Source: Candidatus Iainarchaeum sp.
GTDB lineage: Archaea; Iainarchaeota; Iainarchaeia; Iainarchaeales; VGJJ01
Direction of reading: 5' to 3'
Length of the DNA stretch: 64,000 nt
Assembly (NCBI GenBank): GCA_030688545.1
Contig: JAUYHT010000008.1
Location: forward strand, 84,608 to 148,607
Of this stretch, positions 18,578 through 39,955 are shown piece by piece. Every line of letters begins with the position of its first letter. The stretch's first letter is position 1. Below the pieces are notes generated by a model, which saw only the letters and a program-made list of their open reading frames with translations, did not search any database and was not told where the DNA came from. The translations under genes were made by a program, and so were the position numbers.

Positions 18578-18652
18578 GGCCCCGTAGCTTAGTCTGGATA
18601 GAGTGTCGGGCTTCGGACCCGAAGGTCGGGGGTTCAAATCCCTCCGGGGTCG
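18578..18652 (+). tRNA. tRNA-Arg (anticodon TCG)
   Basis: Folded by hand: acceptor GGCCCCG/CGGGGTC, D-arm GCTT..GAGT, anticodon stem TCGGG/CCCGA with loop CTTCGGA, 5-nt variable loop, T-arm GGGGG-TTCAAAT-CCCTC, discriminator G; no encoded CCA. Confidence 0.85.
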
Positions 18653-18717
18653 CTAAATCGTAAAGTCAACGTGCGCTAAAAGTCTTTTTAGGGAGCAACC
18701 GCACGCAGATGATATGA

Positions 18718-20097
18718 ATGCCCCCAAAACCAACCGACAATAGCATACACGGATACCACGAAAAATATCACAGAGTCCTCTATCAACTCTTTCCCGACAA
18801 ATTCCCAAGACCTATTCCAAAGAGAGAAGGCGTATCCAAACAGATAGAACCCTTTCAGATCAATTTGATCAACAAGAAAGTTCTATATGATCTATACTTG
18901 TTTCAAGAAGCATCCGACCAAACAGGGGTTGCTCGACGATGGACACTCTTACGGCTCCTATCCAAAATCAGTCTCCTGCTAGAAGAGACTGACGGGTTTT
19001 CAGGGGACTTACCTGAAAGGACATTCCAAAACATGCTCTCGCATGAAAAAGGAAAAGAAATTGTCCTGCAACTCGCCAACAAAGTACGAAGACAAACACA
19101 ATGGAACCGAACAACCGAAAACTTTCATCTTCGTGCACTCAAACAGCTCCTTCGACACATGAATGGAGGCGATTCCACTCCACACTGCATCTCATGGCTT
19201 AAGTTCAAACGAAAAAAGAATGATTCGGGAGAAGATCCAAGCAAGGCACCCAAATTGATTAAACGAGAAGACATTATCACCGAACCAGAAATGGCAAAAC
19301 TCTATGAGAATGCTTCGCACACCATGATTAAATGTGCACTCGCCTGCTTATGGGAAGGATTACGTGCCTCCGAATTATTGAATTTGAGAAAAAAGAGCGT
19401 TACCTTCGAAGAAAATACGGTCAACCTTTCAGTCCAAGGAAAGACGGGCTCTCGAATCGTAAAATCAGCGACAGGTGCACGATACATTCGTGATTGGTTA
19501 AGCCAACATCCAGATCCTTCCCCCGATTCGTGGCTCTTTGTGATCGTTTCAAACAAAAATAAGGGTCAACGTTACGGATATTTTCCATTGGGAAAAGAAA
19601 TTCACAACACGCTTCGTCGAGCTGGCATCATCAAGCGCGGAAATTTGCACGTGTTCAGGCATTCACGTGTCGTTGACATGCTTCTCAAAGGATATTCCCC
19701 CGCTATTATCCAAAAAGTGATGGGATGGTCAAGCTTAGATATGCTCCAAACCTATGGCCATCTTGTCGATGTGGACGCTCACAATGAAGTTTTACGAATT
19801 GAATTAGGAGGAAAACCAAGAGAAGCAAAGCCTTCCATTTTATCCGCCAGAGTTTGCCTCATTTGCTCAAAAGAAAACGATTTGAGTGCAGATAGCTGCG
19901 TGAGATGTTCCAATGCTCTAACCGACAAGGGCCTTGTCGAAAAGAACCGAGAATACCACGAGCTAAAAGACAAAGTTCAGGAACTCCAAGAAAGCATGAG
20001 TCTTCTAACTGCTTGGATGAAACGATTTGGCAAAAGTGAGCCATCTCCAAGAGAAGCCAAGGAATTTCACGACGAATGGATAAAAACTATTGAATAA
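18718..20097 (+). CDS. int: tyrosine recombinase / integrase (intact, tRNA-adjacent) with C-terminal CxxC...CxxC zinc ribbon
   Basis: Catalytic-domain motifs FRHSRV (HxxR) and LQTYGHL (Tyr); located 65 nt downstream of the tRNA-Arg 3' end. Confidence 0.85.
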   Translation: MPPKPTDNSIHGYHEKYHRVLYQLFPDKFPRPIPKREGVSKQIEPFQINLINKKVLYDLYLFQEASDQTGVARRWTLLRLLSKISLLLEETDGFSGDLPERTFQNMLSHEKGKEIVLQLANKVRRQTQWNRTTENFHLRALKQLLRHMNGGDSTPHCISWLKFKRKKNDSGEDPSKAPKLIKREDIITEPEMAKLYENASHTMIKCALACLWEGLRASELLNLRKKSVTFEENTVNLSVQGKTGSRIVKSATGARYIRDWLSQHPDPSPDSWLFVIVSNKNKGQRYGYFPLGKEIHNTLRRAGIIKRGNLHVFRHSRVVDMLLKGYSPAIIQKVMGWSSLDMLQTYGHLVDVDAHNEVLRIELGGKPREAKPSILSARVCLICSKENDLSADSCVRCSNALTDKGLVEKNREYHELKDKVQELQESMSLLTAWMKRFGKSEPSPREAKEFHDEWIKTIE

Positions 20098-20179
20098 AAA
20101 TATTCAACAGAGCCGGACCTGTTGAAAAATAAGGCCTTTTAGAATCGAGATTAAAACAGGTTTGTGAACTATAGATAGT

Positions 20180-20629
20180 ATGGTTAATGCTCCTCCGCTT
20201 CGACATGTAGTGAGACAACACTTAGATTCAAGGGTTTTGTTACGACTGCGTCTTTTTTTGTTGATTATAGTGGTTATGGCTGGCATTGTTGTGTATGATA
20301 TTTACTTGGGTGTTTCCGAACTTGTTTTTTTCATCCCCATACTTATCATTGGATTTGGGGTGGGACTGTTTAGCAGTCGCATGACCAAATTAAGCTGGAA
20401 CAAAGAAAAGGGAAAAGTCGTGGGGCAGATGGACGCAATAGGAATTGTCGTATTGGTGGTTTATATTGGGATAGAGGCAAGTCGGGAATGGATTCTTAGT
20501 CAATGGGTTGAGGGTCTTCTTTTGAGCGCATTGGGATTTGCCTTTATTGGCGCGGCCATGGCCGGACGCTTTTATCAAATGCGGATAAACATTTTGAAGA
20601 TTCTCACAGGGGAACAGAAACTAAATTAG
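20180..20629 (+). CDS. integral membrane protein (hypothetical)
   Basis: Four hydrophobic helices. Confidence 0.45.
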   Translation: MVNAPPLRHVVRQHLDSRVLLRLRLFLLIIVVMAGIVVYDIYLGVSELVFFIPILIIGFGVGLFSSRMTKLSWNKEKGKVVGQMDAIGIVVLVVYIGIEASREWILSQWVEGLLLSALGFAFIGAAMAGRFYQMRINILKILTGEQKLN

Positions 20630-20695
20630 CATATTCAGTGCCCTGAGACATCGGCATTAAAAATATTAGATGCCCGATATTTGCGAGGTGGTAGC

Positions 20696-21331
20696 ATGAG
20701 AATTGCATTATTTGGCGCAACAGGGAAAACAGGAATGAACATTGTTCGGCAGGCGCTCGAAATGGGCCATGAAGTAAAAGCCTTTGTCTGAAATCCCGCG
20801 AAGATGACTATTCAAGATGACAAACTTTCATTGGTTGAAGGTAACGTTGTAGATTCGAAAGCAGTAGAGCAAGCGGTTGAAGGGAGTGATTTGGTTATTT
20901 CTGCTCTCGGTCCGACCCCTGATGCGAATGAGATGATTCTGGCAAAAGGAACGGAGAATATCATAAACGCGATGAAAAAAAACGATGTAAAAAGGTTGAT
21001 TGTAGAGAGTTCGTGCCCTCTGTCTGGATCACCTGAAGGGATGGCTTTTCTGAAAGGATTTGGTATGACCGATGATAAGATAGCATCAGTCAGACCCATG
21101 ATTGACGACAAAATTAGACAAGAGACCATTGTTAGGAAAAGCGGATTAGACTGGACAATCGTTCGACCATTAGCTCTAACAGACGGACCAAAAACCGGTA
21201 CGTATCGTGCAGGAGAAACACTAAATATCAAGCAAACGGATAACATCTCGCGAGCAGACGTCGCGGACTTCATGCTAAAAAGTGCAAAAGACAATAAGTG
21301 GGTAGGTAAGATAGTTGTGGTTGCATATTGA
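20696..21331 (+). pseudogene. NAD(P)H-binding NmrA-like/atypical SDR protein interrupted by in-frame TGA at 20789-20791
   Basis: Upstream in-frame segment MRIALFGATGKTGMNIVRQALEMGHEVKAFV-(TGA)-NPAKM... carries the GxxGxxG Rossmann motif and continues into ORF 20804..21331. The TGA sits where these proteins usually have Arg. Confidence 0.55.
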
Positions 21332-21351
21332 TACGAAAAAATAATATTTCC

Positions 21352-22626
21352 TTATTCGTATCGCAGCGCTTCAATGGGTCTTAACCGTGATGCATTCATT
21401 GCGGGAACGAGACCTGCAATGATTCCGATGATCGTTGATAGAGTGATTGCAATAATAATTAATTCGGGTGAAACAAATATAGTGGATCCCTGTCCCCCCG
21501 GTACTGATAAGAGGCCGGTACTCGATACGCCCACCGAAGCGAGTGTGCCTAAAATGACTCCAATAATTCCCCCTACTAATCCAAATAATCCCGATTCCAT
21601 TACAAAAAGAGTTAGTATTTCATTGTTGGTCGAACCCAATGCTTTTAGGATCCCAATTTCTTTCGTTTTTTCCAGGACGGAAGTAAACATACTATTGGCC
21701 ACACCCAACGCTCCCACGATCAATGAGATGGCGGCAATGGCGCCTAGGAATAGGGTGAGTGTTCCAGTGATAGCACTTACTTGCTCCTGAAGTGCTTGCG
21801 AAGAGGTAACCGTAAAATCTTGATTTCGTTCCGTCACTCTTCGAGATATTTGTAAGGAGGCAGTAAGGTCATTTACCGTTTGATCAACCTGTTCGGAGTC
21901 CGAAACTTTTGCTTGAATGCTCGTATACGTATCGCGATTAACATCATCCGACAATACATTCCATGCTCCATTCAAGGTGGTATAAACAGTTGAATCGCCC
22001 TGTCCAAATCCACTTCCGGACGGCGAAAGAATTCCCACCACCGTGAAGGGCTTTCCTTCTAACGTGATAGTCCTCCCCAATGTAATGGGTTGCTTGAACA
22101 CAGTAGTAGCAACGTTCGTTCCAATCACTACCCCGACAGAATCACTCGGCGTAAGAAAACGGCCAGCGGACAAAGTTAGATTGGACGTCTGAGTCCACGT
22201 GACAGGATTAACACCCTGAAGACTCACATTAGTCGTTTCACCCAGAAAAATAATTTCGGCTCGTCCAGAAACGATTTCAGTGACAGCCGTAACATAGGGA
22301 TGAGTGTCAATAATGATGGCATCTTTCTTGGTAAGCGTGGGCGCCTCGTCCGTGGAAGCAGTAGTTGTCATACTGACTCCCCCGCCTCCTCCCCGAAAAC
22401 CACCACCAAATCCTTGTGCACGGCTGAAGCCCGGAGTAACCGTAATAATATCGGCTCCAAAACTGGAAAGTTGTTGGGTTACACTCGCTTGCGCCCCTTC
22501 TCCGATGGAGATGATTGCCACTACTGCCGCCACTCCAATAATGATTCCCAACAAGGTAAGCCAGGATCGAAGCCGACGATGGACAATACTGTTTAGCGAG
22601 AGCGCAAAGGAATCCGCAACTTTCAT
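21352..22626 (-). CDS. ABC transporter permease, MacB/FtsX-like
   Basis: N-terminal transmembrane helix, large extracytoplasmic domain, C-terminal FtsX-type 3-TM bundle. Confidence 0.85.
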   Translation of the reverse strand: MKVADSFALSLNSIVHRRLRSWLTLLGIIIGVAAVVAIISIGEGAQASVTQQLSSFGADIITVTPGFSRAQGFGGGFRGGGGGVSMTTTASTDEAPTLTKKDAIIIDTHPYVTAVTEIVSGRAEIIFLGETTNVSLQGVNPVTWTQTSNLTLSAGRFLTPSDSVGVVIGTNVATTVFKQPITLGRTITLEGKPFTVVGILSPSGSGFGQGDSTVYTTLNGAWNVLSDDVNRDTYTSIQAKVSDSEQVDQTVNDLTASLQISRRVTERNQDFTVTSSQALQEQVSAITGTLTLFLGAIAAISLIVGALGVANSMFTSVLEKTKEIGILKALGSTNNEILTLFVMESGLFGLVGGIIGVILGTLASVGVSSTGLLSVPGGQGSTIFVSPELIIIAITLSTIIGIIAGLVPAMNASRLRPIEALRYE

Positions 22627-22629
22627 ACC

Positions 22630-24138
22630 TTACCTCCGTTCCGGTTTTCGCGAATCGGATGATGTACGACCTTTTTCAAGTTCCCCTGATTGAAAGAAAT
22701 GGATAAACAAACCAGCCGATACAACAGCTGCCCCCAGGACTGCAAGTTCATTTCGACCGAGTAGGAAAATGGCTACCAGAAATAAGATTATCACTCCTAT
22801 TATTCGCACGGCAAGCGCTTTCCAATCCTTTTTGGCACGCCATTGATTGTAACCAATTCCCCCTCCCACGAGAAGAATCAATAACCCCCATGCAATCAAA
22901 GGGGATGCGCCGGTAGGGACGGGAGTAGTATTCGACCCATTTCCAACCGAGGTTGCAGGTAACGAAATTGTTTTTTGTACGCTTTGTCGTTCTCCCGTGG
23001 TATCCGTGTAGGATATCTCCATCTCCAGCGTGCGTGGGATCAATTCACTTGTTGGAGTGGGGCTGCGCGAAACACTTCCGGATGAAGTAACGCTATTCGG
23101 AGAAGATGATGGAGTGCTTTTGCTGGCTAAGGGAAACGTCGCAATCGTGAAATCCCCTTTATTGAGATTACCCAGGATCGAGACATTGCTTCCTCCGCTT
23201 GAACTTCCAAGAGGAGTTAAAAGTTTGGCTACGACTGCCCCTGCATTGTTGGAACCAATATTGGCAATGCTCACGGATAATTGTGTCGCCGTCATTTCGG
23301 CACTCACTTCAAAATCAGTAGTGCCTCCTACAATGACTCCTATTTCCGAGCTTTGTTCCTGTGTTCCATTGCTATCAATGAAGGATAAATCAATCGTCAA
23401 AGGGTAAATTCCTGTGGCAATGTTAGGATCGGCTGCTACCGTGTACTGGATATTGACTTTTTCTCCCGGCTGGATAATGGAAATGTATCGTTTGTTGTCC
23501 GATCCAACGGGTAAAATCAGTGAGCTTTCTTCAGCCCATGAAAAAGAAATATTTGAGATGGGAGACCCACTTACGTTAGTTAAAGTAAAGATAACATTCG
23601 TTTGGTTTCCAGGATTCACGACGCGCGGTTCCAAGACAACGTCAATATTTTTCTGCACGCCGGTAACGGGAACAATGATTTCATGCAGTTCGGTTACGGG
23701 AAGTCCATTTCGCAAATAGGAAAGGGAAAGGATTACGGGATAATGCCCAGGTATGGTATCTTCTTTGACGCGAAATGAAAAAATGAGTGTTTTGGTTGCA
23801 CCAGGTGCAATAGCGGATTCGACATCTGTTAGACTTACTGGTTCAAATTGATCTCCCACATCCAAAAAGGCATTCAAATCTTGAATGGTAATACTGGACC
23901 CTTTGTTATGGATGTCCACTGCAAGACTGACGGTGTCTCCTGCGTGGATAGTGCTTGGAAGAAAGTTGGTCTTTTGAATTTCGGCCAGGAAAGCAAACTC
24001 GCCCGGAAAATCTCCAAGTTGCGCATGGACGGAGGATCCTGCACTCAACAAAAATAATCCTAAAATAAAATAGAACACAGGATTCCTACTCCATTGGCGT
24101 GTCGTTGTTTTTCCATCTGCATCATTCATTTGTTTCAT
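22630..24138 (-). CDS. secreted surface protein with repeated CARDB/S-layer-like beta domains and C-terminal TM anchor
   Basis: Signal peptide, repetitive beta-rich domains, Ser/Thr-rich linker and C-terminal hydrophobic anchor. Located between the ABC ATPase and permease genes with 4-nt overlaps. Confidence 0.65.
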   Translation of the reverse strand: MKQMNDADGKTTTRQWSRNPVFYFILGLFLLSAGSSVHAQLGDFPGEFAFLAEIQKTNFLPSTIHAGDTVSLAVDIHNKGSSITIQDLNAFLDVGDQFEPVSLTDVESAIAPGATKTLIFSFRVKEDTIPGHYPVILSLSYLRNGLPVTELHEIIVPVTGVQKNIDVVLEPRVVNPGNQTNVIFTLTNVSGSPISNISFSWAEESSLILPVGSDNKRYISIIQPGEKVNIQYTVAADPNIATGIYPLTIDLSFIDSNGTQEQSSEIGVIVGGTTDFEVSAEMTATQLSVSIANIGSNNAGAVVAKLLTPLGSSSGGSNVSILGNLNKGDFTIATFPLASKSTPSSSPNSVTSSGSVSRSPTPTSELIPRTLEMEISYTDTTGERQSVQKTISLPATSVGNGSNTTPVPTGASPLIAWGLLILLVGGGIGYNQWRAKKDWKALAVRIIGVIILFLVAIFLLGRNELAVLGAAVVSAGLFIHFFQSGELEKGRTSSDSRKPERR

Positions 24139-24857
24139 CTCCCTGTCCTATTTTTTCCATCATAATGAATTTGACCATCTTTCAATTCAATGACACGATC
24201 CGCATACTTGGCAATATCCGATTCATGCGTAACCAACACGATGGTTTTTCCTTGCTTGGCATGAAGGTCCTCGAAAATATCCATGATCTCATAACTCGTT
24301 TTCGAATCCAAATTTCCGGTGGGCTCATCTGCCAAAATCATGGATGGATCGGCCGACAAGGCGCGCGCTACTGCCACGCGCTGGCGTTCTCCTCCAGAAA
24401 GCTGGGAAGGATAGTGTTGAATTCGATGGGATAGGCCGACTTGATCCAGAAGCTTGGTAACGGTCGTATTGATTTCATTTTTCTCAAACTCATGAATGCG
24501 CATGGGCAAAGCAACATTCTCAAAAACATTAAGGGTAGGATAAAGATTGAAAGTCTGGAATACGAAACCAATGGCTTTCCCCCGAATGCGTGAGACTTCC
24601 GATTCGGAAAGAGCGGAAATGGACGTTCCTTCCAGGAGGATTTCACCTTTTGTCGGAATATCCAATGCCCCTACCATATTCAATACGGTGGACTTTCCAG
24701 AGCCGGATGCTCCCATAATAGCTACAAATTCTCCTTTTCGGATCGTAAGACTGATTCCTTTTACGGCTGGAACCTGCACCTGGTCCATCTGGTAGATTTT
24801 CCAGGCATCTTTAATCTCCAAAATAGGGATATCCGTAGAAAATCGTTTAATCGCCAT
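24135..24857 (-). CDS. ABC transporter ATP-binding protein (MacB/LolD-like)
   Basis: Walker [10 protein letters not shown], signature [15 protein letters not shown], Walker [13 protein letters not shown]-loop. Confidence 0.9.
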
Positions 24858-24941
24858 ACTTTATATGGGAGTGCAACCATTAATAGATTGACCTGTAACG
24901 AGATGTAACGAGTAATCTCTTCAATTGAAATAGGGTGAAAC

Positions 24942-25532
24942 ATGAAACAAGCTGAAACGATTTATAAAACCAAAAAAAGATACCTTGCACTAATGATTCT
25001 CTGTTTCTTCTACGGAGGATTCACCCTTATTATGGCGCTGATTGTGGGATATTCTACTTTCTGGAGAAGCCAAATCGCCGATCCGAGTCTATTCCAGCGT
25101 AGTATCTTTGATCGTGGACCTGCTGATGCCAATCGCTTTTTACCCCCGGATTTTAATCGCGCATTTGTCGAGCGCCTTCCCCTCGATCCTTTTTCAATTC
25201 TCACATCGCCCCCTATTTTGCTTTTCATATTAGGTGGGGTTCTCTCTATTCTTGCAGGGCTAGCTATTTGGAATTTGATGAGAGAAAAGGAAATTAAGAA
25301 AATCAGAGAGGAAACGGCAAATCACTTGTTGCTTCCAGAAGAACTCCAAGTGTTGGAAGCCTTGAAGAAATCCAACATGGAATCCACACAATCTCGAATA
25401 ACAGCAGAAACAGGATTGAGCCGTGTCCAGGTGCATCGCGTGATCAACCGATTGGAGGCCAAGGGAATCCTCGAAAAGCACAAGTATGGACTGACAAACA
25501 AAATTATTTTGAAAAAAGAAATATTCGAATAA
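24942..25532 (+). CDS. membrane-anchored winged-helix (MarR/ArsR-like) transcriptional regulator
   Basis: Two N-terminal TM helices plus C-terminal LQVLEALKKSNMESTQSRITAETGLSRVQVHRVINRLEAKGIL wHTH. Confidence 0.55.
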   Translation: MKQAETIYKTKKRYLALMILCFFYGGFTLIMALIVGYSTFWRSQIADPSLFQRSIFDRGPADANRFLPPDFNRAFVERLPLDPFSILTSPPILLFILGGVLSILAGLAIWNLMREKEIKKIREETANHLLLPEELQVLEALKKSNMESTQSRITAETGLSRVQVHRVINRLEAKGILEKHKYGLTNKIILKKEIFE

Positions 25533-25679
25533 ACTCAGAGTGCAAGCGCTGCTGTTTTTTTGCCTGATTGCATAGGCATATGCCCTTCCCTCCGTTGAAA
25601 AGGGAAAGGGATACACCATTTGCACTTTCTTTACCCGCCATTAAAAGACAACCCCGGAGCACCTTTTCACCCTTGCTAC

Positions 25680-26627
25680 CTAATTATTCCCAAAGTCTGA
25701 ATTCTCCAAGAGGTCTTTGGATTCTTTTATTTTGATTTCCTGATCAAAGTGGTTCAATCTGTGGAGAACTCTTTCGAGCATTATTTGGTCTCTTTTCTCA
25801 CTGTATATTACGTGGAGTATGTTATTGATTGTTTGGATGGTTTTTTCGTCGAAGTTGGCTTCTCTTCTATTTTGGATGTCGGAATATGCAGACAGGAGGG
25901 TGTTGAGCAGTATGTTTTGTAATTCGGTTGAGATGTAGTTTACATAATTGAAGTCGTAGTCTCTTCGTCTCAGTCTTTCCATTTCTGTTTTTTGCATTCT
26001 TTCCTTAGCTTTTATTTCCATTTGTTTCAGTTGGTTAATTCCTTCGACTTGCTCTTGAAAATAGGCGGCCTCTTCGTGGTTGTTCTTTTTCTTCATTTTC
26101 TTAGCAAGAATGCGCATTCCTTTGGCGGCGTGTCGTTCTTGCCGCTTGAGGTGCGTAATAAAATATTTTCTACTGAATTCGACTTGTCTTAATCGGTTGT
26201 TCCACGTTTCCATCATTAACTGTTTTATTTTTTCAATCTCAATCTCTTGTAAAGGGCCAAGAGTAATGAGAATGTTGTTGAAGAACGTTTCAATAGGGCT
26301 TTCTGTGATGAAATATTTTTTTCTTTTTGCGTCCGAACCAATTCTAATTCCCTGAAATCCTTTTCCATCTACATTAACGTGAATATTTTTCCCAATTCTT
26401 ATCTCATTTTGAATAAGGTTTGTTCCTTCCAACTCTTTAAGCGCCAGTTGTATACCAGTGTCTTTTTTGGCGTCTAACAACTCGAATATATCTCGTTGGA
26501 AAAGTCCGTCTGGGAACAGTTCGAGCAGGTATAGCACGCGACTGATTCGCGGAGTTTTCAGGCAGGTAACCCACTTGGTAGTAGGTTTGGATTTTTCCCC
26601 TACTTTATTTCCGTCTTTGGACATCAT
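25680..26627 (-). CDS. hypothetical protein (N-terminal wH-like segment, coiled-coil rest); AT-rich
   Basis: Coherent 315-aa ORF in low-GC island. Confidence 0.45.
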   Translation of the reverse strand: MMSKDGNKVGEKSKPTTKWVTCLKTPRISRVLYLLELFPDGLFQRDIFELLDAKKDTGIQLALKELEGTNLIQNEIRIGKNIHVNVDGKGFQGIRIGSDAKRKKYFITESPIETFFNNILITLGPLQEIEIEKIKQLMMETWNNRLRQVEFSRKYFITHLKRQERHAAKGMRILAKKMKKKNNHEEAAYFQEQVEGINQLKQMEIKAKERMQKTEMERLRRRDYDFNYVNYISTELQNILLNTLLSAYSDIQNRREANFDEKTIQTINNILHVIYSEKRDQIMLERVLHRLNHFDQEIKIKESKDLLENSDFGNN

Positions 26628-26702
26628 CTATGTTCATTAGTGGCTTAACCCCTATAAATCTCCGTAGAAAATCAACAGTTTTTCTACGTGGAGGTGAGAA
26701 CG

Positions 26703-26831
26703 GTGAAGACCTTTCAAATAACGGTTCCTGAAGCCTTAGATTCACGGCTCCAGGAACAAAAGAAGAGCTTTACCACCCGAAACGCCCTGATTCTCCACTT
26801 GTTGAATCGGGGATTGGAGGCCCAAAAATGA
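26703..26831 (+). CDS. ribbon-helix-helix (CopG/Arc-like) small DNA-binding protein, about 42 aa
   Basis: Below ORF-track size cutoff; translation VKTFQITVPEALDSRLQEQKKSFTTRNALILHLLNRGLEAQK has the RHH beta-strand plus helix pattern. GTG start at 26703 (or 26694). Confidence 0.45.
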   Translation: MKTFQITVPEALDSRLQEQKKSFTTRNALILHLLNRGLEAQK

Positions 26832-26963
26832 GTCAAAATCAGACGATTTTGAGGATCGTCAGGTTGGCCAAGGAAGGAGGGGCTGAAAAGTTCCGTTCGT
26901 GGGAGCTCAAACTCATCGAAAAATGAAAAATCCACTCCGACTAGGGAATGGAAAAATTAGGTT

Positions 26964-29211: not shown

Positions 29212-29212
29212 C

Positions 29213-29770: not shown

Positions 29771-29782
29771 CACATAATTTAG

Positions 29783-30301: not shown

Positions 30302-30338
30302 TTTTAATGGGGGTTTTGTTCCTACTTTATGGTAAAGT

Positions 30339-32376: not shown

Positions 32377-32445
32377 AATTAGGTCTTTTCCAAATTAAGG
32401 TTAAAAAATGAATCAAACCACCCGTGCTAATCATGCTAATGAGAT

Positions 32446-32952
32446 GTGAATACCATGATTGATCCAGCCGTCCCCAATGAGACACGCGAGCAAAACCGAA
32501 TTGCAATTGTGATTGGTGTTTTTGCCATCTTGTTTGTTTTGTATCCTCACGTTAACCAATCTACTGATGAAATCAAACTTCTTTTTTACCTCACGGCCTT
32601 AGTAGCTATGTTTTACGGTTTGTATCTCTTTTTCATTGCCCTTGCGTATACCCCTGAAAGCGTTGGTCGAATGCATTCAAAATATTTTAACAAATTCAAA
32701 GAACTGGCATATTTCAATTATTTCATCGGCTCGTATGCAGCGTTTCTATTTATGGCCGTAATTGTTGTTTCGCTTATTTTTGGCGGAGTCGCAAAGGCAA
32801 TTTTGGGTTTTGAAATCCCTCTAATAATTCAACAAATTCTTCTTATACTTTTGATTGCTGTTGAAGCGATTAAAATTTTTGGAGTGAATACAGAGGAAAA
32901 AACTGAAGAGCCGATTTGGTCTAGAAGAAGGCGGTACCATGAGCAAAAATAG
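32446..32952 (+). CDS. 4-TM membrane protein
   Basis: Hydrophobic helices; overlaps the next gene by 14 nt (operon). Confidence 0.5.
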   Translation: MNTMIDPAVPNETREQNRIAIVIGVFAILFVLYPHVNQSTDEIKLLFYLTALVAMFYGLYLFFIALAYTPESVGRMHSKYFNKFKELAYFNYFIGSYAAFLFMAVIVVSLIFGGVAKAILGFEIPLIIQQILLILLIAVEAIKIFGVNTEEKTEEPIWSRRRRYHEQK

Positions 32953-34129
32953 TGCCGACTTTGTTAAGGCAAAGAAACTCTACTATGTTGAAAAATGGGC
33001 CGTTACTGAAGTTAACATAAAATTTGAGAATGTTGATGGAAACCAAAGTATTTCTGCTACGATGATTTTTGAAAAGGGCGGGAAAACTGAAACGATTGTA
33101 TCAGGTGAACCAGATTTTGTTGACATGGCATTTAATTTCAAAACATTATATCGAGACGGTGAAACTAAGATTATAGATTTATCATCTACTCCAATTAAGA
33201 ATGTCGCTAATCTTTACAAGAATGTCGAGTTTTTCAAAGACCTTTCCAAAGATAAGGTTAGAGAACTTATTGGAGAAATACAAAGTGGTAAATTTTTATT
33301 TCCTTCTGGATTTAACTTGCGTTCGACGATATTAGATGTCTTAGCTAAGAGATTTGATAATGAACATGTAAAATTCCTGCTCGCAAACTACAATGCATCT
33401 TTAGCGTTGCAACTAGCTGGGATGCCGTTATGGTATTCATCTTACCAGAAAATGAAGAATGCTGCAAATGACAAAGGGAGATTCGAAAATTTTGAGAGAA
33501 TATTTAGCAGAGTTTTTAGGGAGACACTTGGTGAAATGCCTGTTATAAAGGCGTTTTTAGCGAAGGAAACAAAATACAAAGCCGATAGAAATTTATTGTT
33601 AAAAAATCTTGGAACCGAATTTTCGCGCCATAAAGAACGGTGGGATACTTACTACAAAACTACCGGCGGACAGATGGATGGAAATGCTGCAGTATTGCAT
33701 TTTCTTGATGATTACGCAAATTTGTTTGAGATTATCAAACCTTCTCTTCAAGATATGGTCTCTATCGTGAAGGAGAAAAACAATGAAAATAATATCTCTT
33801 TAGAAAGTGATAATCAAATAGCAGCGTATCTCAAACAAAAGGGATTTTCTGATTTAGTTGACCCGATTGACCCAATACTGAGGAATGGCAGGAGTCATTA
33901 CGCGCTTGAGCAGATAGAAAAAGGGAAGCTTCATATTTATAATACAAAATTCAAAGATAGAAAGCTGCTTAAAATTTATGATATACAAGATGTCATTGAT
34001 AAGTACATGGAATTTTGTGACTTTGCTCGCGCGTTAGTAATTACTGATGTCCTTAACGACGAACTTCTTTTGCTAAAGGCCCTTGATTCGCCCGATTTTA
34101 AATTCTTTGTCATTGAAAATAAGACTTAG
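32939..34129 (+). CDS. hypothetical protein (396 aa)
   Basis: Coherent AT-rich ORF; no recognised motif. Confidence 0.5.
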   Translation: MSKNSADFVKAKKLYYVEKWAVTEVNIKFENVDGNQSISATMIFEKGGKTETIVSGEPDFVDMAFNFKTLYRDGETKIIDLSSTPIKNVANLYKNVEFFKDLSKDKVRELIGEIQSGKFLFPSGFNLRSTILDVLAKRFDNEHVKFLLANYNASLALQLAGMPLWYSSYQKMKNAANDKGRFENFERIFSRVFRETLGEMPVIKAFLAKETKYKADRNLLLKNLGTEFSRHKERWDTYYKTTGGQMDGNAAVLHFLDDYANLFEIIKPSLQDMVSIVKEKNNENNISLESDNQIAAYLKQKGFSDLVDPIDPILRNGRSHYALEQIEKGKLHIYNTKFKDRKLLKIYDIQDVIDKYMEFCDFARALVITDVLNDELLLLKALDSPDFKFFVIENKT

Positions 34130-34872
34130 TTTATTGCTGTAACAATTTGTTCAACTTTTTTGATATTTTCCAAGAGTGTTTTAGTTTTATTATTCTCGAA
34201 TTCTTCAAGCGAATAAATAATCTCACTATTATTAAGGTAGTTATAGTATTCCGCAAAGGATCGCGCTAGAATTTTGATATTAAATTCTAAAACTTTTCTA
34301 GTAACTTTTGGATCATAGTTTCGAGTTGTCTTTTTCAGATTTGCTAAACCTTTTCTGTGATAGGTTTGGAAAGGCAACATCAGCTTTTCCGTATTACTAT
34401 GTGCTATTTTTGAAAAACTGCTGTACAAATTTAGGCGCAAGTGTCTTTCCATTTGACTATAATTTGGTTTGTGACCATATTCTATCATCTCTTGGATAAG
34501 GTCAAAATTATTTGTATCTAAGCAATATACGACTCGCAGCATTCTTTCGTAATTTGCTCTCAATATTGTGACGGATTCGCCCAAACTTCCTTTTAATGCT
34601 AAATCTTCTATTATTCGGGATGCGTCTAAATTTTCCACAAGAAAATATTCATAAATTACGGATGATTTCCAACTAATTTTTCCATTTTTGTAAAAAAGGC
34701 CTTGTATTGATTCAAAAAGAAGTTGTCGAACTTTTTCACATTTTTCTAATAGCTTCTTCAATTCTTTTTCATTATTACTATGGATACTTTTTTCTTCATT
34801 TTTAGATTTTTCTTCGAATGTTTCTTCGCTAGTCGCAAAGGAATGAATAATTTTTTGTAATGTTGATTTCAT
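34126..34872 (-). CDS. hypothetical protein (248 aa)
   Basis: Coherent ORF; overlaps the previous gene by 4 nt (convergent). Confidence 0.45.
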   Translation of the reverse strand: MKSTLQKIIHSFATSEETFEEKSKNEEKSIHSNNEKELKKLLEKCEKVRQLLFESIQGLFYKNGKISWKSSVIYEYFLVENLDASRIIEDLALKGSLGESVTILRANYERMLRVVYCLDTNNFDLIQEMIEYGHKPNYSQMERHLRLNLYSSFSKIAHSNTEKLMLPFQTYHRKGLANLKKTTRNYDPKVTRKVLEFNIKILARSFAEYYNYLNNSEIIYSLEEFENNKTKTLLENIKKVEQIVTAIN

Positions 34873-34968
34873 CCGTTGATTCCTTCATGGTTACAAATTC
34901 TTAGATTATTATCTAGACAACGAACATAATGAGAAAGGCCGTAAAAAGCATTTGGTCTAATACTCGCT

Positions 34969-35817
34969 ATGGATAAAAAAACCGTACTTGAGCTTGAGGA
35001 TGCCGTAAAGACCCTGAAAGTTTGGATGAATCAATCTGCGGCTATGGTGACTCCAGAAATAAGAGATGCCGCTCTAGAATTATTTCAGTTAGGTAAATGC
35101 GATCTGGCAGTATCAAAACTTGCTTTTGATGGTGGTCACTATCCACAAGCCCTATCACTGTTACAACAGTCAGTAGAAAAACTGGGAAAAAGTGGGTTTT
35201 TAGTGACCGGTCAGGAGAAGCCTGAAAAGCTGGCCACTCATTATTTTTATGAGCCGGTAAGTAAAAAAATATTGGATACCAACGCGACCGCATTTGACTA
35301 TTTTACTGAAGTTTCTAAAATTGACCTGCCATTTAGTTCTGATTTTTCCGAAATCAGAAGAAATGAAGTGAAACTAAGAGAGATGTCCAAAGAAAAAATC
35401 AATGAATTTTTTAATTCTTTTGATGAAGGTGTGGCGCAAGTAATGGATGATGGTTTTATCGCTACAGAATTGAATAGACAGTTTGGCTTTTATGAGGGAA
35501 AAATTGATGTTCATCATCTCAATGTCGCACGTAAAAGTGCTAAAGAACAAACTCCACGCGTTAGAAATATGTTGCTAAGTGTTCTAAACTGGGCAAAACT
35601 AACAAGCTTGGTCGTCTTACTTACATCGCATTATCAGTCCTCCAGATACCCCTATGACAATAAGGGTGCGTCCTACTCTGATGATTATCACATAAAGTAT
35701 GTTCAGAATCTTGGGGTTATTCAAGCATATCCATTAGTGTATATTCAAATTCAGAATCTATTCACGTTTTTTGGAGATAGTTATGGATTAGAACTGAAAC
35801 AAGTCACGGATGATTAA
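34969..35817 (+). CDS. hypothetical protein; HEPN-like N-terminal helical segment
   Basis: AALELFQLGKCDLAVSKLAFDGGHYPQALSLLQQSVEKLGKS resembles the HEPN N-terminal helix pair; the Rx4-6H motif is not secure. Confidence 0.4.
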   Translation: MDKKTVLELEDAVKTLKVWMNQSAAMVTPEIRDAALELFQLGKCDLAVSKLAFDGGHYPQALSLLQQSVEKLGKSGFLVTGQEKPEKLATHYFYEPVSKKILDTNATAFDYFTEVSKIDLPFSSDFSEIRRNEVKLREMSKEKINEFFNSFDEGVAQVMDDGFIATELNRQFGFYEGKIDVHHLNVARKSAKEQTPRVRNMLLSVLNWAKLTSLVVLLTSHYQSSRYPYDNKGASYSDDYHIKYVQNLGVIQAYPLVYIQIQNLFTFFGDSYGLELKQVTDD

Positions 35818-35825
35818 GAATTATG

Positions 35826-36101
35826 TCAGGGTTTCAACCACGTCACAATTACAATTAAGAATGTGGCAATTGTCATCAAGATTGTTGCGATTGCCATCCA
35901 TTTTTGCATCTTTGTTGATGCCCTCATTTCATTGATTAGTTCCCGGCCGCTTCGCCGTTCCATTTCAAACTTTACCATCGTTAAATAATTTTTGTTGATG
36001 GTGTGGGATGTAATTAGTCTCAAATCTTCATCAGATAGATCGCTGACCATTCCATTATCCAAAGAACGGTATAACTGATCCAAGTGTTCAGCCTTATTCA
36101 T
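35826..36101 (-). CDS. small protein with C-terminal TM helix
   Basis: Start codon is 1 nt after the AbrB-like gene stop. Confidence 0.35.
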   Translation of the reverse strand: MNKAEHLDQLYRSLDNGMVSDLSDEDLRLITSHTINKNYLTMVKFEMERRSGRELINEMRASTKMQKWMAIATILMTIATFLIVIVTWLKP

Positions 36102-36102
36102 G

Positions 36103-36279
36103 TCAGTTCTCCATTTTTGGTAGTTCACGTATCAGGAGTGTATTCCTTCCTTGTCGTTCCCACAGTAGCTTTGTGCCTTTTTCCCATAGCATCAAGTGCA
36201 TGAGTTCGACGGGTATGGTGGCATGGTAGCGGAATGAGCCGTCTTTGTTGGCGCTTTTCTGGATTTTGGAAGTTGCCAT
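36103..36279 (-). CDS. AbrB/SpoVT/MazE-like swapped-hairpin DNA-binding protein (58 aa)
   Basis: MATSKIQKSANKDGSFRYHATIPVELMHLMLWEKGTKLLWERQ fits the SpoVT_AbrB fold pattern; internal start of track ORF 36103..36408. Confidence 0.45.
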   Translation of the reverse strand: MATSKIQKSANKDGSFRYHATIPVELMHLMLWEKGTKLLWERQGRNTLLIRELPKMEN

Positions 36280-36545
36280 AGGGAAAACATTACCATTATA
36301 TGGATTGCTTCCTATAAGGTTTGTTACCTCTAAAAGGCTAAAAAAAGAGCATCTTGATTTTACGAATAAGCGTCCTCCGGGGCCGTTTAATTTTTTGTAA
36401 GGTAGCAAACAGGGTAGCCTCTTTTCTTTTTTGGAGATGGAATGGCATATGTCGGTGGAATCAGACCGATTTTATCACTACGAACTTTTTTACGAACTAC
36501 TGAAAGGCCGAATCTGGCCCGAAAAATTTTCTCGCAAATTTTGCT

Positions 36546-37001
36546 TTATGGTTTTTTCACCGCACTTATTGATTTCCATTCATTTAATAGTGCTATGGCT
36601 TCCTTTTTTTCTACGCCGCCTTTTACTATTATTTTACCAATTTTATTTTTTTTAAGAATGTAAAATGTTCTTGTTTTCCCATATTCTCCATGTGGACATC
36701 CATAGATTACTTTGGATATTCCAGCATAAACCATTGCTTTTGCACACATTAAACAAGGTTCCACTGTGGTATAGAGAATAGATCCTTTCAACGAGTCTTT
36801 TTTCCGAGATGCTTTTCGAATAGCAGAAATTTCAGCATGAGCTGTAGGATCGTGCTTCCCGCCCTCTTGACTTCGAGATTTAGCGACGATTTTATCACTT
36901 TTTACAATGATACAACCGCATGGATAATCGCCGCGATTTAATCCTCTTTCGGCTTCTATGAGAGCAATTTTCATTATCCGTTGATCTGAGTTGCTTTTCA
37001 T
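36546..37001 (-). CDS. CMP/dCMP (CDA-fold) zinc deaminase
   Basis: HAEISAIRKA ... TVEPCLMCAKAMVYAGISKVIYG (H(A)E ... PCxxC zinc-binding motifs). Confidence 0.8.
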   Translation of the reverse strand: MKSNSDQRIMKIALIEAERGLNRGDYPCGCIIVKSDKIVAKSRSQEGGKHDPTAHAEISAIRKASRKKDSLKGSILYTTVEPCLMCAKAMVYAGISKVIYGCPHGEYGKTRTFYILKKNKIGKIIVKGGVEKKEAIALLNEWKSISAVKKP

Positions 37002-37003
37002 AG

Positions 37004-37642
37004 TTAAATCCACTTTTTCTTGTTTAGGGCAGCCCACACAATTTTTTCAATGAGTTGATGACCTTTATTATTCGGGTGAATTCCATCATTCAATGTAGAA
37101 ATGAACGTTTTATTATTTAATATAGCAAATGCGTTGACAAAATAGACTTTTTCCTCCATACAAATTTTCTTCAAGGCTTCGTTGTACTTTTCAAATTGCT
37201 TTAAACGATACGACCCTTTTGGGTACCATGGAATTGGATCTACTTTGCTTTCATCGCATGGCTTTATTCCCAAGAAAACCATTTTATCTGAATACCTTCG
37301 CGTCATCTTTATTAGACGACGAATATTGCGCTTGAATATAGGTAGAGCAACCTTATTTTGTTTCTTTTTAGGTAACCAGATAGCATCGTTCCCCCCTCCG
37401 GAAAAAATGAAAATGTTTTGCTCAGTTGGATCATCATCTAAGCGAATCTTAGCCTCACTTTCAAATCTTTTAACTAATCCAGTTGTTGTGCCACCTGAGA
37501 TCCCAAGATTATAGATCAGTAGATATTTGTTATTTGGAATATTTTTCTGATCTAATTTCTCTCGAATTCGTGAAACCCATCCGCCTTTTTTATCCCAAGC
37601 ACCATAGGTAGTTGAATCACCAAAAACCAAAATATGTGTCAT
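37004..37642 (-). CDS. SGNH/GDSL-family hydrolase
   Basis: ILVFGDSTTYG (GDS block I), GGND (block III), DGIHPN (block V). Confidence 0.7.
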   Translation of the reverse strand: MTHILVFGDSTTYGAWDKKGGWVSRIREKLDQKNIPNNKYLLIYNLGISGGTTTGLVKRFESEAKIRLDDDPTEQNIFIFSGGGNDAIWLPKKKQNKVALPIFKRNIRRLIKMTRRYSDKMVFLGIKPCDESKVDPIPWYPKGSYRLKQFEKYNEALKKICMEEKVYFVNAFAILNNKTFISTLNDGIHPNNKGHQLIEKIVWAALNKKKWI

Positions 37643-37644
37643 AG

Positions 37645-37959
37645 TCAAACTCCAAGAGATTCTTTTACCCACTTTTCAAGTTTGCTTTCATTTTTTGCGA
37701 CTCGAACAAATTCTATTGCTGGCAAATCGTATGAGTGTACTTTCTTTGTCTCTACAATAATTTGCTCTATTTTTTCTTTGGTCGTTTTGACAAGGAGCAT
37801 TGTTTCATTAGAAGATTCCATTTTTCCCTTCCACCAATAATATGACTCAATACTGGGAATAATATTCCCACATGCCACCAGCTTTTTCAGCAGGAGATTT
37901 TGAACAATTTTCTTGGCTTCGGAACGATCTTTACAAGTAATAAATCCGATATAAATCAT
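37645..37959 (-). CDS. cutA: CutA1 divalent-cation tolerance protein
   Basis: Length and pattern IYIGFITCKDRSEAKKIV...VACGNIIP...YWWKGK match CutA. Confidence 0.8.
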   Translation of the reverse strand: MIYIGFITCKDRSEAKKIVQNLLLKKLVACGNIIPSIESYYWWKGKMESSNETMLLVKTTKEKIEQIIVETKKVHSYDLPAIEFVRVAKNESKLEKWVKESLGV

Positions 37960-38008
37960 TCTAGACTTTTTGTTTTTTCCTTTATATTACTCACTCGTAA
38001 TTAGATTA

Positions 38009-38392
38009 TTAGGGGCTTCTACAGAGGTGTTCATGGACAATCTTCATCCCGTTAAGACCCTTCACAATGAGCATAGTTCCTCGACCACTTCCCTCTGCCA
38101 TTTTCCCGATGACAATCCCTTTCCAATGAAAATTAAAAGTGCACACTGCGCACTCGTCTCCAATATACAACCACTTCACTTTTGAAATTTGGTATTTTTC
38201 GTCTTTTATTTTGTTAAACGTCTTTTCAAAAGCTATCCTTATCTCGTCTATTCCTTTGAATGAACCATCCGTAAACTCATATATTGCATTGACATCGATG
38301 AATGGTTCTACATTTTTGAAATCGTGAGAATTAGAGGCCTTTTCATACTCCATCAAAAAATTATCCAGTACTTTTTCTTCCATAACCCCCAA
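38009..38392 (-). CDS. SnoaL/NTF2-like small protein
   Basis: 127 aa; alpha+beta cone-like pattern; weak. Confidence 0.4.
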   Translation of the reverse strand: MGVMEEKVLDNFLMEYEKASNSHDFKNVEPFIDVNAIYEFTDGSFKGIDEIRIAFEKTFNKIKDEKYQISKVKWLYIGDECAVCTFNFHWKGIVIGKMAEGSGRGTMLIVKGLNGMKIVHEHLCRSP

Positions 38393-38435
38393 TAGTGCCC
38401 TTAATCTTAAAATAACTCCTTGCTCTATCTAGCAT

Positions 38436-39068
38436 ATGCAAGTTACAAAGTATTGTCACTGTTGTCTATTTATTGAGGAAAATGAAGCGCGGATTCTTAT
38501 CGATCCAGGAAGCTATTCAAATCCCCCCTTCGATTTGAAGCTGAATGCTATTTTCATTACGCACCAACACTCGGATCATATCGATGTGAGTTTGCTGAAG
38601 AATATTTTAGCCGAAAATACTGGTTGTCCAATTTATACATGTCAAGACGTGTCCGAAATATTATCCAAAGAAGGAATTTCATCAACTGCTCTCAAAGAAG
38701 GACAAGTTATCACAGTCAAAAATACTCCAATAAAGACTGTGGGAAAAGAACATGCTATTCTCTATCAGAAAAGTCCATGTATGAATCACGGATTTCTAGT
38801 TTCAAATCGATTTTTCTTTCCCGGAGACGCACTAACAATTCCTAATGAATCTGTCGAAATTCTCGCCCTGCCCGTAGCCGGCCCCTGGTTGAAACTCTCA
38901 GATGCAATTGAATATGCTATAAAAGTAAAACCAAAAATAGCATTTCCAGTACATGACGGAATTCTCAAAAAACCTGGAACAACAAACACCATTCCTCAAA
39001 TCAGCTTACCGCAACAAGGAATTCAATGGATTATCCCTGAAGACGGGAAAAAAATGGGGTTTGGCTAG
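38436..39068 (+). CDS. metallo-beta-lactamase fold hydrolase
   Basis: HQHSDH motif and further conserved His/Asp. Confidence 0.75.
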   Translation: MQVTKYCHCCLFIEENEARILIDPGSYSNPPFDLKLNAIFITHQHSDHIDVSLLKNILAENTGCPIYTCQDVSEILSKEGISSTALKEGQVITVKNTPIKTVGKEHAILYQKSPCMNHGFLVSNRFFFPGDALTIPNESVEILALPVAGPWLKLSDAIEYAIKVKPKIAFPVHDGILKKPGTTNTIPQISLPQQGIQWIIPEDGKKMGFG

Positions 39069-39150
39069 TTTCAGAAATTAGTCTACTGGAATCTTTTTTG
39101 TTTAAATTAAGAGTAAAAAGAACGCCCCACCTCCACGGTGGCGATTCGTT

Positions 39151-39564
39151 TCACGCCAGCTGGATCACAATCTCTTTCGCATTGAGTTTTGGATAGACAT
39201 ATTTTCCCTTTTTGGATTTGACAATAAGGTGGCTTTTTTCGAGCGCATTAAGGTCGCGGGATATGGATTCCTGCTTTCTTTTTGTTTTTTTGGCTAGCTG
39301 TGAAACACCCAATGGTTTTTCATCATCATATTCAATAAGTTGCTGAAGCAAATGAAGCTTCTGTGGAGACAACGCCTCCAACATACTTTTCCAATCCTTG
39401 AAATAAATCACATGACTAGTCACTTTAATGAGTTTTGGGTTTTGGAAAACGGCCTTAAGGTCTTCCCGCGGGTTCCCCCCGATTCTGAAAACGATCCTTC
39501 GCCCCATCATACGTATAGCACACTCCGTTATATATAATTGTTTTGGTATTGAGCCAAATACCAT
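39151..39564 (-). CDS. ArsR-like winged-helix transcriptional regulator
   Basis: LSPQKLHLLQQLIEYDDEKPLGVSQLAKKTKRKQESISRDLNALEKSHLI. Confidence 0.55.
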   Translation of the reverse strand: MVFGSIPKQLYITECAIRMMGRRIVFRIGGNPREDLKAVFQNPKLIKVTSHVIYFKDWKSMLEALSPQKLHLLQQLIEYDDEKPLGVSQLAKKTKRKQESISRDLNALEKSHLIVKSKKGKYVYPKLNAKEIVIQLA

Positions 39565-39878
39565 CTCCAGTTTCCCATGACCTTCTCATAGTAATATATC
39601 ACCGCCTCATACGAAACAGGACGATTATGATACTCCTTTTCTCCTGGACCTATGAAAAAATTATGCATGTGAATGGACTCCTTTTTGTTCCCGTCAATTT
39701 TGACAATTTCAATTGGATGACTATCTTTCCAATGAAGCTGAATGATAGCGAATGATTCAATAATCGAAAAATCTTCATCAGCCCGAATCCGGACGACCAT
39801 TTTATTCTGTTCGGTTTCATCGAGTGAAACTATCATTTTATAATTTTTCAAATCGCTCATTTTAGCAACCGCCAGCAT
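39528..39878 (-). CDS. hypothetical protein
   Basis: Coherent 116-aa ORF at the island edge. Confidence 0.4.
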   Translation of the reverse strand: MLAVAKMSDLKNYKMIVSLDETEQNKMVVRIRADEDFSIIESFAIIQLHWKDSHPIEIVKIDGNKKESIHMHNFFIGPGEKEYHNRPVSYEAVIYYYEKVMGNWRWYLAQYQNNYI

Positions 39879-39955
39879 TCAATTTATATTGTTAGGGAAA
39901 ATTTTTGCGCGAATTCATACCTTTATTTTTATACTGTTGACTACAAAATAGCAAT

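Follow-up and report, generated by a model that had tools for sequence, protein, structure and literature searches.

A 17.7-kb integrative plasmid-like element at a tRNA-Arg gene of Candidatus Iainarchaeum, delimited by contigs that carry the empty site

We analysed a 64,000-nt stretch of a metagenome-assembled genome (MAG) of Candidatus Iainarchaeum sp. (assembly GCA_030688545.1, contig JAUYHT010000008.1, positions 84,608-148,607 of the forward strand; labelled Candidatus Diapherotrites, DPANN, by NCBI), hereafter the window, to whose first letter all positions below refer. Next to the window's tRNA-Arg(TCG) gene lies an inserted element that carries a tyrosine integrase gene (int) and occupies positions 18650-36382, i.e., 17,733 bp, and we read it as an integrative plasmid-like element in an archaeal chromosome, with a probability of roughly 0.85. 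The reading rests on a direct repeat of part of the tRNA gene at both ends of the inserted DNA and on an empty site that is otherwise practically identical to the window. The coordinates of all features are collected in Table 1.

The borders were read from contigs that lack the element. An exact look-up of the aEF-1beta protein encoded just upstream of the tRNA gene retrieved three contigs, which were aligned to the window. The 3.2-kb contig L002 (GCA_034375545.1) follows the window over 16074-18649 and then continues directly with 36374-37023, and the 1.5-kb contig L003 (Logan assembly of SRR26726065) follows it over 17179-18649 and then continues directly with 36374-36443. In both contigs the two aligned segments overlap on the same nine nucleotides, CCTCCGGGG, which the window contains at 18641-18649 and again at 36374-36382. 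Identity to the window is 100% for L003 and for the left flank of L002 and 99.8% (1 mismatch in 650 nt) for the right flank of L002. By these alignments, L002 and L003 are empty sites that join 18649 to 36383, and because they join the flanks exactly there, the short match at 36374-36382 is the true attR. Exact-sequence look-ups of the deaminase open reading frame (ORF; as delimited in this analysis) and of the cDPGS-like gene yielded no new alleles.

Within the tRNA, the attL core takes in the T stem's 3' strand and the beginning of the 3' acceptor strand, and insertion exchanges the last bases of the gene. In the empty allele, whose attB sequence was read in L002, the tRNA ends in ...CCTCCGGGGCCG, followed by a T-rich trailer, and its acceptor stem, GGCCCCG/CGGGGCC, is perfectly paired. 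In the occupied allele these bases come from the element as ...TCGC, by which C71 becomes U and the G2-C71 pair becomes a G2-U71 wobble; the match at the far end of the element, at 36374-36382, is followed by cCG. Both alleles fold with a 7-bp acceptor stem, that of the occupied allele being 2.7 kcal/mol weaker.

An initial annotation, made from the letters of the window alone, had proposed an integrase-mediated insertion at tRNA-Arg with accessory genes of foreign composition and a plasmid-like replication module, and this outline is supported. The int ORF starts 64 nt past the tRNA end (65 nt in that annotation). GC content is 0.405 over 18650-36382 and 0.371 over 36383-39950, compared with 0.522 in the left flank and 0.495 in the right flank, and across the same low-GC span the tetranucleotide distance to the flanks goes up some two- to threefold, to 0.29-0.60 from about 0.16-0.23, in agreement with the described drop from the tRNA to about 40 kb. 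Pfam searches likewise bear out the gene content, namely an ABC transporter, winged helix-turn-helix regulators, a replication protein, a HEPN-type pair and many ORFans, with a glyoxalase gene (39956-40345) and a PIN/ribbon-helix-helix (RHH) pair (40347-41083; there called VapBC) at the far side of the low-GC block. The island had been drawn at 18578-39950, about 21 kb, with its right boundary unresolved; the empty-site contigs shorten the inserted unit to the 17,733 bp given above and set its right junction at 36374-36382. No convincing repeat of the tRNA 3' end had been seen, and our own searches of the sequence alone (exact 11-mers, blastn-short with word size 7, and the native tRNA-end 18-mer with 3 mismatches) also returned nothing above chance. 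The best candidate of the initial annotation, a 9+2-nt match judged to be near chance level, is so by count alone, but the comparison with insertion-free sequences, which that annotation had called for, identifies this very match as the true attR. The inserted unit looks intact, at odds with the suggestion that the island may be decayed: the 9-nt core is perfect at either end, int is whole, and an attP site can be reconstituted.

When position 36382 is rejoined to 18650, the resulting attP reads ...TTGATTTTACGAATAAGCG-T-CCTCCGGGG-T-CGCTAAATCGTAAAGTCAA..., with two 19-nt arms in inverted orientation around the core. The arms match at 16 of 19 positions (fixed-position binomial p of about 1.5e-6), and the best dyad axis of the rebuilt site runs exactly through the middle of the 9-bp core, 22 of 30 pairs being symmetric. 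The layout is that of a simple Xer-like site, in which two inverted recombinase half-sites bracket a short central region. Tyrosine recombinases typically have an overlap of 6-8 bp, which the 9 bp of identity can accommodate. Beyond the core, attP and attB have little sequence in common.

The same architecture is found in a real circular relative. Contig L009 (ENA ERZ27257191 k141_2506533) is 8,001 bp long, has a 141-nt terminal overlap that closes it into a 7,860-bp circle, contains no tRNA, and encodes an integrase (P0002) 62% identical to that of the element. The 189 bp upstream of its int gene align without gaps across the rejoined attP junction, the dyad centres fall in the same aligned column, and the outer half-sites, of the form TTTYACG-N27-CGTRAAA, keep the same 27-nt spacing (TTTACG-N27-CGTAAA in the element, TTCACG-N27-CGTGAA in L009). 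The att core of L009 (…CATCCCCGGTGCA…) differs from that of the element and points to another target. Sequence is also conserved on either side of the junction. The box GTCTTTTTAGGGAGC in front of int is probably an archaeal TATA-type promoter of this gene, and CCTATAAGGTT, which precedes the small divergent ORF in both the element and L009, may serve that ORF in the same way. The ORF itself, of 59 aa, is 36% identical over 58 aa to the ORF in the same place in L009 and matches PHROG 661 (E 1e-4); it has no Pfam or PDB match and is a candidate regulator or directionality factor. An AbrB-like fold was considered for it and set aside, as a single-sequence AlphaFold2 (AF2) model of moderate confidence (predicted local distance difference test score, pLDDT, of 72; a hairpin and a long helix) also did not support one. 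Contig L010, which overlaps L009 and represents the same element, encodes a 466-aa protein with a precomputed Pfam match to MTBMA_p00010_2nd, for which our own hmmscan at E 0.01 was blank, and a 340-aa protein with a weak match to Zot-like P-loop ATPases.

The integrase, which the initial annotation had rightly described as intact and as having a C-terminal zinc ribbon, consists of an Xer-like catalytic domain, a CxxC...CxxC ribbon and, after it, a helical tail. R216, K242, H311, R314 and Y346 are invariant when eight family members are aligned, and with W337, present here, they are the R-K-H-R-(H/W)-Y catalytic residues of the tyrosine recombinase superfamily; C380, C383, C394 and C397 of the zinc ribbon are invariant in the same alignment. 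The nearest solved structures are those of archaeal XerA (4a8e, E 2.8e-11; 5hxy, E 1.3e-9), with which the integrase also shares a simple site of two inverted half-sites around a short centre. In contrast to XerA, it has an additional N-terminal region of about 150 aa and the zinc ribbon, belongs to a mobile element and has a tRNA gene rather than a dif site as its target, and it scores 70.5 bits against the NCBIfam XerA equivalog model (NF040815), the cut-off of which is 220. It also differs from integrases of the SSV type (type I), in which attP lies inside the int ORF and integration splits the gene; here the core is located 68 nt upstream of the start codon and int stays whole at 459 aa. 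It belongs to a small family: when 5.8 billion proteins, in which the query is annotated as being from a Candidatus Diapherotrites archaeon, were searched by word index, only 11 matched at E <= 1e-5, including the query's own cluster. A scan of metagenome contigs with the integrase alignment found no relative, and the integrases that a scan of viral contigs brought up were all distant (27-32% identity) and had no tRNA close by.

A further member of this family, integrase P0007 (37% identical), was found 52 nt downstream of a tRNA-Asp(GTC) gene in three contigs (L006, L007 and L008), where it reads away from the tRNA in the same layout as at tRNA-Arg. The identical tRNA-Asp integrase is found behind two different upstream flank gene contents, one in L006 and the other in L007 and L008. 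Two neighbouring proteins of the tRNA-Asp element (L006, L007), of 266 and 274 aa, are 42% and 27% identical to the products of 34126-34872 and of the HEPN gene at 34969-35817, respectively, and the divergent pair formed by these two genes is part of the element backbone. The element in L006 (Logan SRR23592399_2647, 9876-21311) additionally carries PIN/MazE, VirB4/TraG-like, TraC/PrgI-like, TrbL-like and TrbC-pilin-like genes; by its VirB4/TraG-, TrbL- and pilin-like genes it looks like an archaeal integrative conjugative element, so that the family includes a look-alike of that class. The element studied here is of a different make, as no VirB4/TraG, VirB6/TrbL or pilin Pfam domain was detected in 18650-36382. 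It is conceivable, and we propose it tentatively, that DPANN-type and other uncultured archaea have a family of mobile elements, as yet undescribed, of which our element is the first member with precise borders. This family would be marked by a rare zinc-ribbon integrase that appears to recombine through as little as 9 bp of identity at tRNA 3' ends, would unite a 7.9-kb circle, a 17.7-kb integrative plasmid and a tRNA-Asp element with type IV secretion genes, and would exist in nature with both occupied and empty alleles. If this is true, the coexisting alleles make its activity directly testable.

Such coexistence is indicated for a single sample, SRR13727534, four Logan contigs of which are 100% identical to the window. 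L001 ends at 18649, L004 starts at 18620, L005 ends at 36403, and the end of L011 corresponds to 36374 (derived from locus coordinates), so that the 30-nt overlaps between contigs fall exactly at the core. This is the picture of a k=31 de Bruijn node with two continuations, which here would be attL or attB at the left junction and attR or attB at the right one. We infer from these contig ends, rather than from reads, that occupied and empty chromosomes coexist in the sample. L004 and L005 also break with a 30-nt overlap at 33550-33579, inside the 396-aa ORF 32939-34129, which suggests sequence variants of the element within SRR13727534.

The replication module centres on a 538-aa protein with an N-terminal zinc ribbon and a superfamily 3 (SF3)/AAA+ core, which yields no match in Pfam, PHROG, PADLOC or NCBIfam. 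Nevertheless, it belongs to a family of 4,358 cluster representatives (50% clustering; E <= 0.001) from archaea and bacteria (one homologue is annotated as Bacillota), the homologues being listed as P0013-P0268. In the Walker A motif GxxxxGK (G171-K177), which S178 follows in the element's helicase, G171, G176 and K177 are invariant, and in the acidic Walker B motif E218 is invariant and D217 nearly so. Homologues are fused to Prim-Pol plus PriCT_1, a DnaG-type primase, a PriL-like domain, the NrS-1 HBD or Gins51_C. An AF2 model built from 40 sequences (mean pLDDT 84) gave as its best Foldseek matches (E 7e-9 to 1e-6) the helicase region of NrS-1 polymerase (6k9c, E 7e-9) and PriRep1 (7pds), followed by minichromosome maintenance (MCM) subunits, simian virus 40 large T antigen, and the primase-helicases of African swine fever virus and poxviruses. 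From the P-loop core, the modelled helicase fold and the primase-associated homologues, we conclude that the protein is a replicative helicase of the SF3/AAA+ type, which has a zinc ribbon at its N-terminus and a domain resembling a winged helix at its C-terminus. Its fold resembles that of the primase-helicases (6k9c, 7pds and poxvirus D5/E5), and homologues of it have a fused Prim-Pol, DnaG-type or PriL-like domain; in contrast, the element's copy has no primase domain, and a zinc ribbon and a beta-rich domain stand at its N-terminus instead. An ORF at the start of the module, 26688-26831, had looked by eye like an RHH protein, an assignment for which Pfam gives no support.

These observations suggest the following as the most likely course of events. 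The tyrosine recombinase would bind the two imperfect inverted half-sites that flank the core in attP and pair this site with the same 9 bp of tRNA-Arg(TCG), located in its T-stem/acceptor 3' strand. Strand exchange inside the core would then insert the circle, leaving attL with the tRNA and int on one side and attR with the small ORF and the native tRNA tail on the other, and the C71-to-U replacement would leave the cell with a foldable tRNA. In the excised circle, int and the small conserved ORF would be transcribed divergently from attP and the SF3-type helicase module would replicate the DNA; the MacB-type ABC exporter, the regulators, the HEPN-type pair and the ORFans are cargo.

By published description, comparable att sites occur in other archaeal elements. 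In the AvPV1 system of Archaeoglobi pleolipovirus proviruses one att site overlaps a tRNA-Gly gene and the other adjoins int, with att repeats of 27 nt (PMC10919331) as opposed to 9 nt here. SNJ2, whose type of integration system is found in haloarchaeal pleolipoviruses, uses a 14-bp core at the 3' part of tRNA-Met and keeps its int intact, and its integrase clade is common to viruses and non-viral elements (PMC5861418). The present element resembles SNJ2 in having an archaeal tyrosine integrase, a target in the 3' part of a tRNA gene, a short core and an intact int, and its 9-bp core, although short, is of the same kind as those of AvPV1 and SNJ2. SNJ2 Int, however, requires two co-transcribed helper proteins, Orf2 and Orf3, to bring about integration (PMC5861418), whereas no Orf2/Orf3-like operon is evident downstream of int in our element, where the next gene encodes a 149-aa membrane protein.

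Several points weigh against an integrative plasmid-like element as read here. Nine base pairs of identity are few, and they are not statistically significant on their own: CCTCCGGGG occurs exactly twice in the window where 0.72 occurrences are expected, and two or more were found in 13 of 100 shuffles. The empty-site contigs are short and may stem from one sample. The attP junction, 36382 to 18650, was present on no contig found, and since it would break L004 and L005 at a place where no break is seen, the contig ends of SRR13727534 argue against an abundant circular form. Neither iterons nor convincing origin repeats were found upstream of the helicase gene and no primase was identified, which leaves autonomous replication unproven. 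Lastly, the ORFans could hide a virion module of an unknown type.

Given the metagenome-assembled source and a repeat of merely 9 nt, one might suppose that the region is native DNA, or that an unrelated low-GC contig was mis-joined at the short repeat. We consider this highly improbable. The attL and attR junctions (tRNA plus element, and element plus native tail) recur at 100% identity in the Logan contigs L004 and L005, the empty allele is present in two other assemblies, assemblers working at k >= 31 cannot make a join at a 9-nt repeat, and the rebuilt attP is colinear with the real circle L009. A provirus, pleolipovirus-like or of an unknown archaeal virus, is a more serious alternative, although still an unlikely one. 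The closest named integrases are indeed those of two Archaeoglobi pleomorphic proviruses, ThalV2 (BK065158; E 3e-21) and GacPV1 (Geoglobus acetivorans pleomorphic virus 1; BK065156; E 2e-17), which have the same ribbon and helical tail and are 26-27% identical over residues 113-432; the ribbon is therefore not peculiar to this gene but characterises a wider clade of integrases from archaeal mobile elements. Secreted and membrane ORFans are encoded in the island, and the Zot-like match of the small circular relative, read on L010, could be taken in the same sense. However, when all island ORFs were compared by tblastn with ThalV2 and GacPV1, only int matched, with no homologue of the virion proteins VP3 and VP4 at the sensitivity of a sequence-similarity search, and where these proviruses have a rolling-circle Rep the island has an SF3 helicase. 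No virion or conjugation genes were recognised in the element, PHROG matches are limited to the one small ORF of unknown function, and the 502-aa secreted protein lies within the ABC-transporter operon. Because no other ORF matches these proviruses and VP3/VP4 and rolling-circle Rep genes are missing, we call the element plasmid-like.

A different question is whether everything of low GC between the tRNA and about 40-41 kb makes up a single composite island built by successive insertions at this tRNA, with the 17.7-kb element as the newest and 36383-41083 as an older, integrase-less remnant. A composite island had also been suggested in the initial annotation; for the insertion delimited here this does not hold, as 36383-39950 lies outside it, and what survives is the weaker form that 36383-41083, too, is compositionally odd and may be older accreted DNA. 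The stretch lies outside this insertion, since in L002, which carries the empty allele, 36383-37023 follows the tRNA without a break. Its tetranucleotide distance (36383-39950) is as high as that of the element and its GC content lower still, its genes are accessory in character and include toxin-antitoxin-like pairs, and in the two nearest species found, represented by L012 (a Diapherotrites MAG) and L013, the order is T2SSE ATPase, CCA-adding enzyme, aEF-1beta and Rad50, uninterrupted by a tRNA or by any of these genes, where the window has 24 kb between aEF-1beta and the CCA enzyme. In L028, a more distant Iainarchaeum MAG, the cDPGS-like gene adjoins the CCA enzyme as it does in the window. 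We regard the composite island as a possibility that we do not favour. No second integrase was found, no further copy of the core (<= 1 mismatch) occurs in 36383-42341, no tRNA 3'-end fragment was found, a search for an older att remnant in 36383-43000 was negative, and part of the stretch is fixed in both alleles. Furthermore, the genome-contig scan with the CCA enzyme on which the synteny rests reached only relatives of at most 43% protein identity (about 43% for L012 and L013), none with tRNA-Arg(TCG) at this locus, so that it demonstrates a broad loss of synteny, which can have many causes, rather than an empty site. The locus may nonetheless have gained accessory DNA repeatedly.

The integrative plasmid-like element thus delimited is of an ordinary kind, i.e., a tRNA-targeting archaeal integrative plasmid, newly and well delimited, and it does not change the current understanding of how such elements work. 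To our knowledge, the mobile elements of DPANN archaea are poorly catalogued, and a literature search found nothing specific on integrative plasmids of Diapherotrites. The interest of the case is modest and lies in the DPANN-labelled host, in the natural empty allele together with a circular relative, and in a short att core that evades detection: such cores can be too short for repeat-based island finders, and the border was revealed here only by the empty-site comparison. The exact attL, attR and attB, the rebuilt attP, the occupied/empty polymorphism and the circular relative suffice to design recombination or read-mapping tests. Additionally, the family of the element's helicase is very large, at more than 4,000 cluster representatives, and yet Pfam, PHROG, PADLOC and NCBIfam still contain no model of it.

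Table 1. Features of the element and its surroundings (window positions; + and - denote the strand).
Feature	Position	Strand	Remarks
tRNA-Arg(TCG), integration target	18578-18653	+	ARAGORN; sole tRNA in the window
attL core CCTCCGGGG	18641-18649	+	9-nt overlap of the L002/L003 blastn segments; exact repeat of 36374-36382
attP right arm CGCTAAATCGTAAAGTCAA	18651-18669	+	putative integrase half-site; inverted relative to 36354-36372
Conserved box GTCTTTTTAGGGAGC	18682-18696	+	22-36 nt before the int ATG; identical 15-mer in the same place in L009 and L010
Tyrosine integrase, 459 aa	18718-20097	+	Pfam PF00589 Phage_integrase, E 4.8e-19
Predicted membrane protein, 149 aa	20180-20629	+	from ORF list; no significant Pfam match
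NAD(P)H-binding (NmrA-like) gene	20696-21331	+	Pfam NAD_binding_10, profile positions 38-183 only
MacB/FtsX permease	21352-22626	-	Pfam MacB_PCD and FtsX
Secreted CARDB/NEW3-type beta-sandwich protein, 502 aa	22630-24138	-	Pfam NPCBM_assoc/CARDB; inside ABC operon
ABC ATPase	24135-24857	-	Pfam ABC_tran; cargo operon 21352-24857
Membrane-anchored winged-helix regulator (DUF7343/MarR-like)	24942-25532	+	Pfam
ORFan, 315 aa	25680-26627	-	no match in Pfam, PHROGs, PADLOC or NCBIfam
Replication module	26688-29770	+	small ORFs 26688-27316; helicase 27313-28929; then 93-aa and 185-aa ORFs (ORFans)
HxlR-type winged-helix regulator	29962-30222	-	Pfam HxlR, E 1.5e-8
ORFans: 360-aa secreted/lipoprotein-like (+), 242-aa (-), 168-aa membrane (+), 396-aa (+)	30339-34129		no significant family matches; include ORFans 30339-31421, 31648-32376 and 32939-34129
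Divergent pair: 248-aa (-), 282-aa HEPN-domain (+)	34126-35817		248-aa: weak DUF5677; 282-aa: Pfam HEPN, E 3.6e-5
Small conserved ORF, 59 aa, adjoining attP	36103-36282	-	divergent from int in circular form
attP left arm TTGATTTTACGAATAAGCG	36354-36372	+	inverted partner of 18651-18669
attR core CCTCCGGGG	36374-36382	+	native tRNA 3' end (CCG) and T-rich trailer from 36383
Low-GC accessory stretch outside the insertion	36383-41083	.	Pfam: TadA-like deaminase, GDSL hydrolase, CutA1, SnoaL-like, metallo-beta-lactamase fold, winged helix-turn-helix/116-aa pair, glyoxalase, PIN/RHH pair
TadA-like deaminase	36546-37037		directly beside the tRNA in the strain without the element
attL junction sequence			...TTCAAATCCCTCCGGGGTCGCTAAATCGTAAAG
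attR junction sequence			...ACGAATAAGCGTCCTCCGGGGCCGTTTAATTTT
attB junction sequence			...TTCAAATCCCTCCGGGGCCGTTTAATTTT
attP junction sequence			...ACGAATAAGCGTCCTCCGGGGTCGCTAAATCG

Among the cargo genes, the NmrA-like gene is interrupted by an in-frame TGA at 20786-20788, upstream of which the N-terminal GATGKTG motif is encoded in the same frame, and the gene may be a pseudogene or, less likely, contain a recoded stop. The same TGA is found in the independent Logan contig L004. The element encodes three winged-helix regulators in all, and PADLOC made no defence-system assignment inside the island.

A few features outside the element deserve mention. Just beyond its right end, an overlapping pair at 39151-39878 (- strand) consists of a winged-helix gene of the HVO_A0114 type and the gene of a 116-aa ORFan, in an arrangement that is toxin-antitoxin-like; the ORFan has a weak PADLOC match to CARF_HEPN_TM (E 1e-3). 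On the other side, a low-GC patch (0.418) between Rad50 and aEF-1beta encodes a STAND/AAA ATPase of 386 aa (16879-18039, + strand; Pfam AAA_16/ATPase_2; PADLOC AbiEi, E 1e-5), the C-terminal winged helix of which is AbiEi-like. As these two genes are adjacent in L012 and L013, the ATPase gene looks like a separate small insertion, possibly related to defence. Farther away, a low-GC patch at 48001-49800 (0.408) contains two ORFs of 229 and 320 aa with no Pfam matches, and the gene of the replication factor C (RFC) small subunit (56620-59496, + strand) contains an intein with a LAGLIDADG homing endonuclease (Pfam Intein_splicing and LAGLIDADG_3), to which much of the low GC seen at about 57-59 kb is due.

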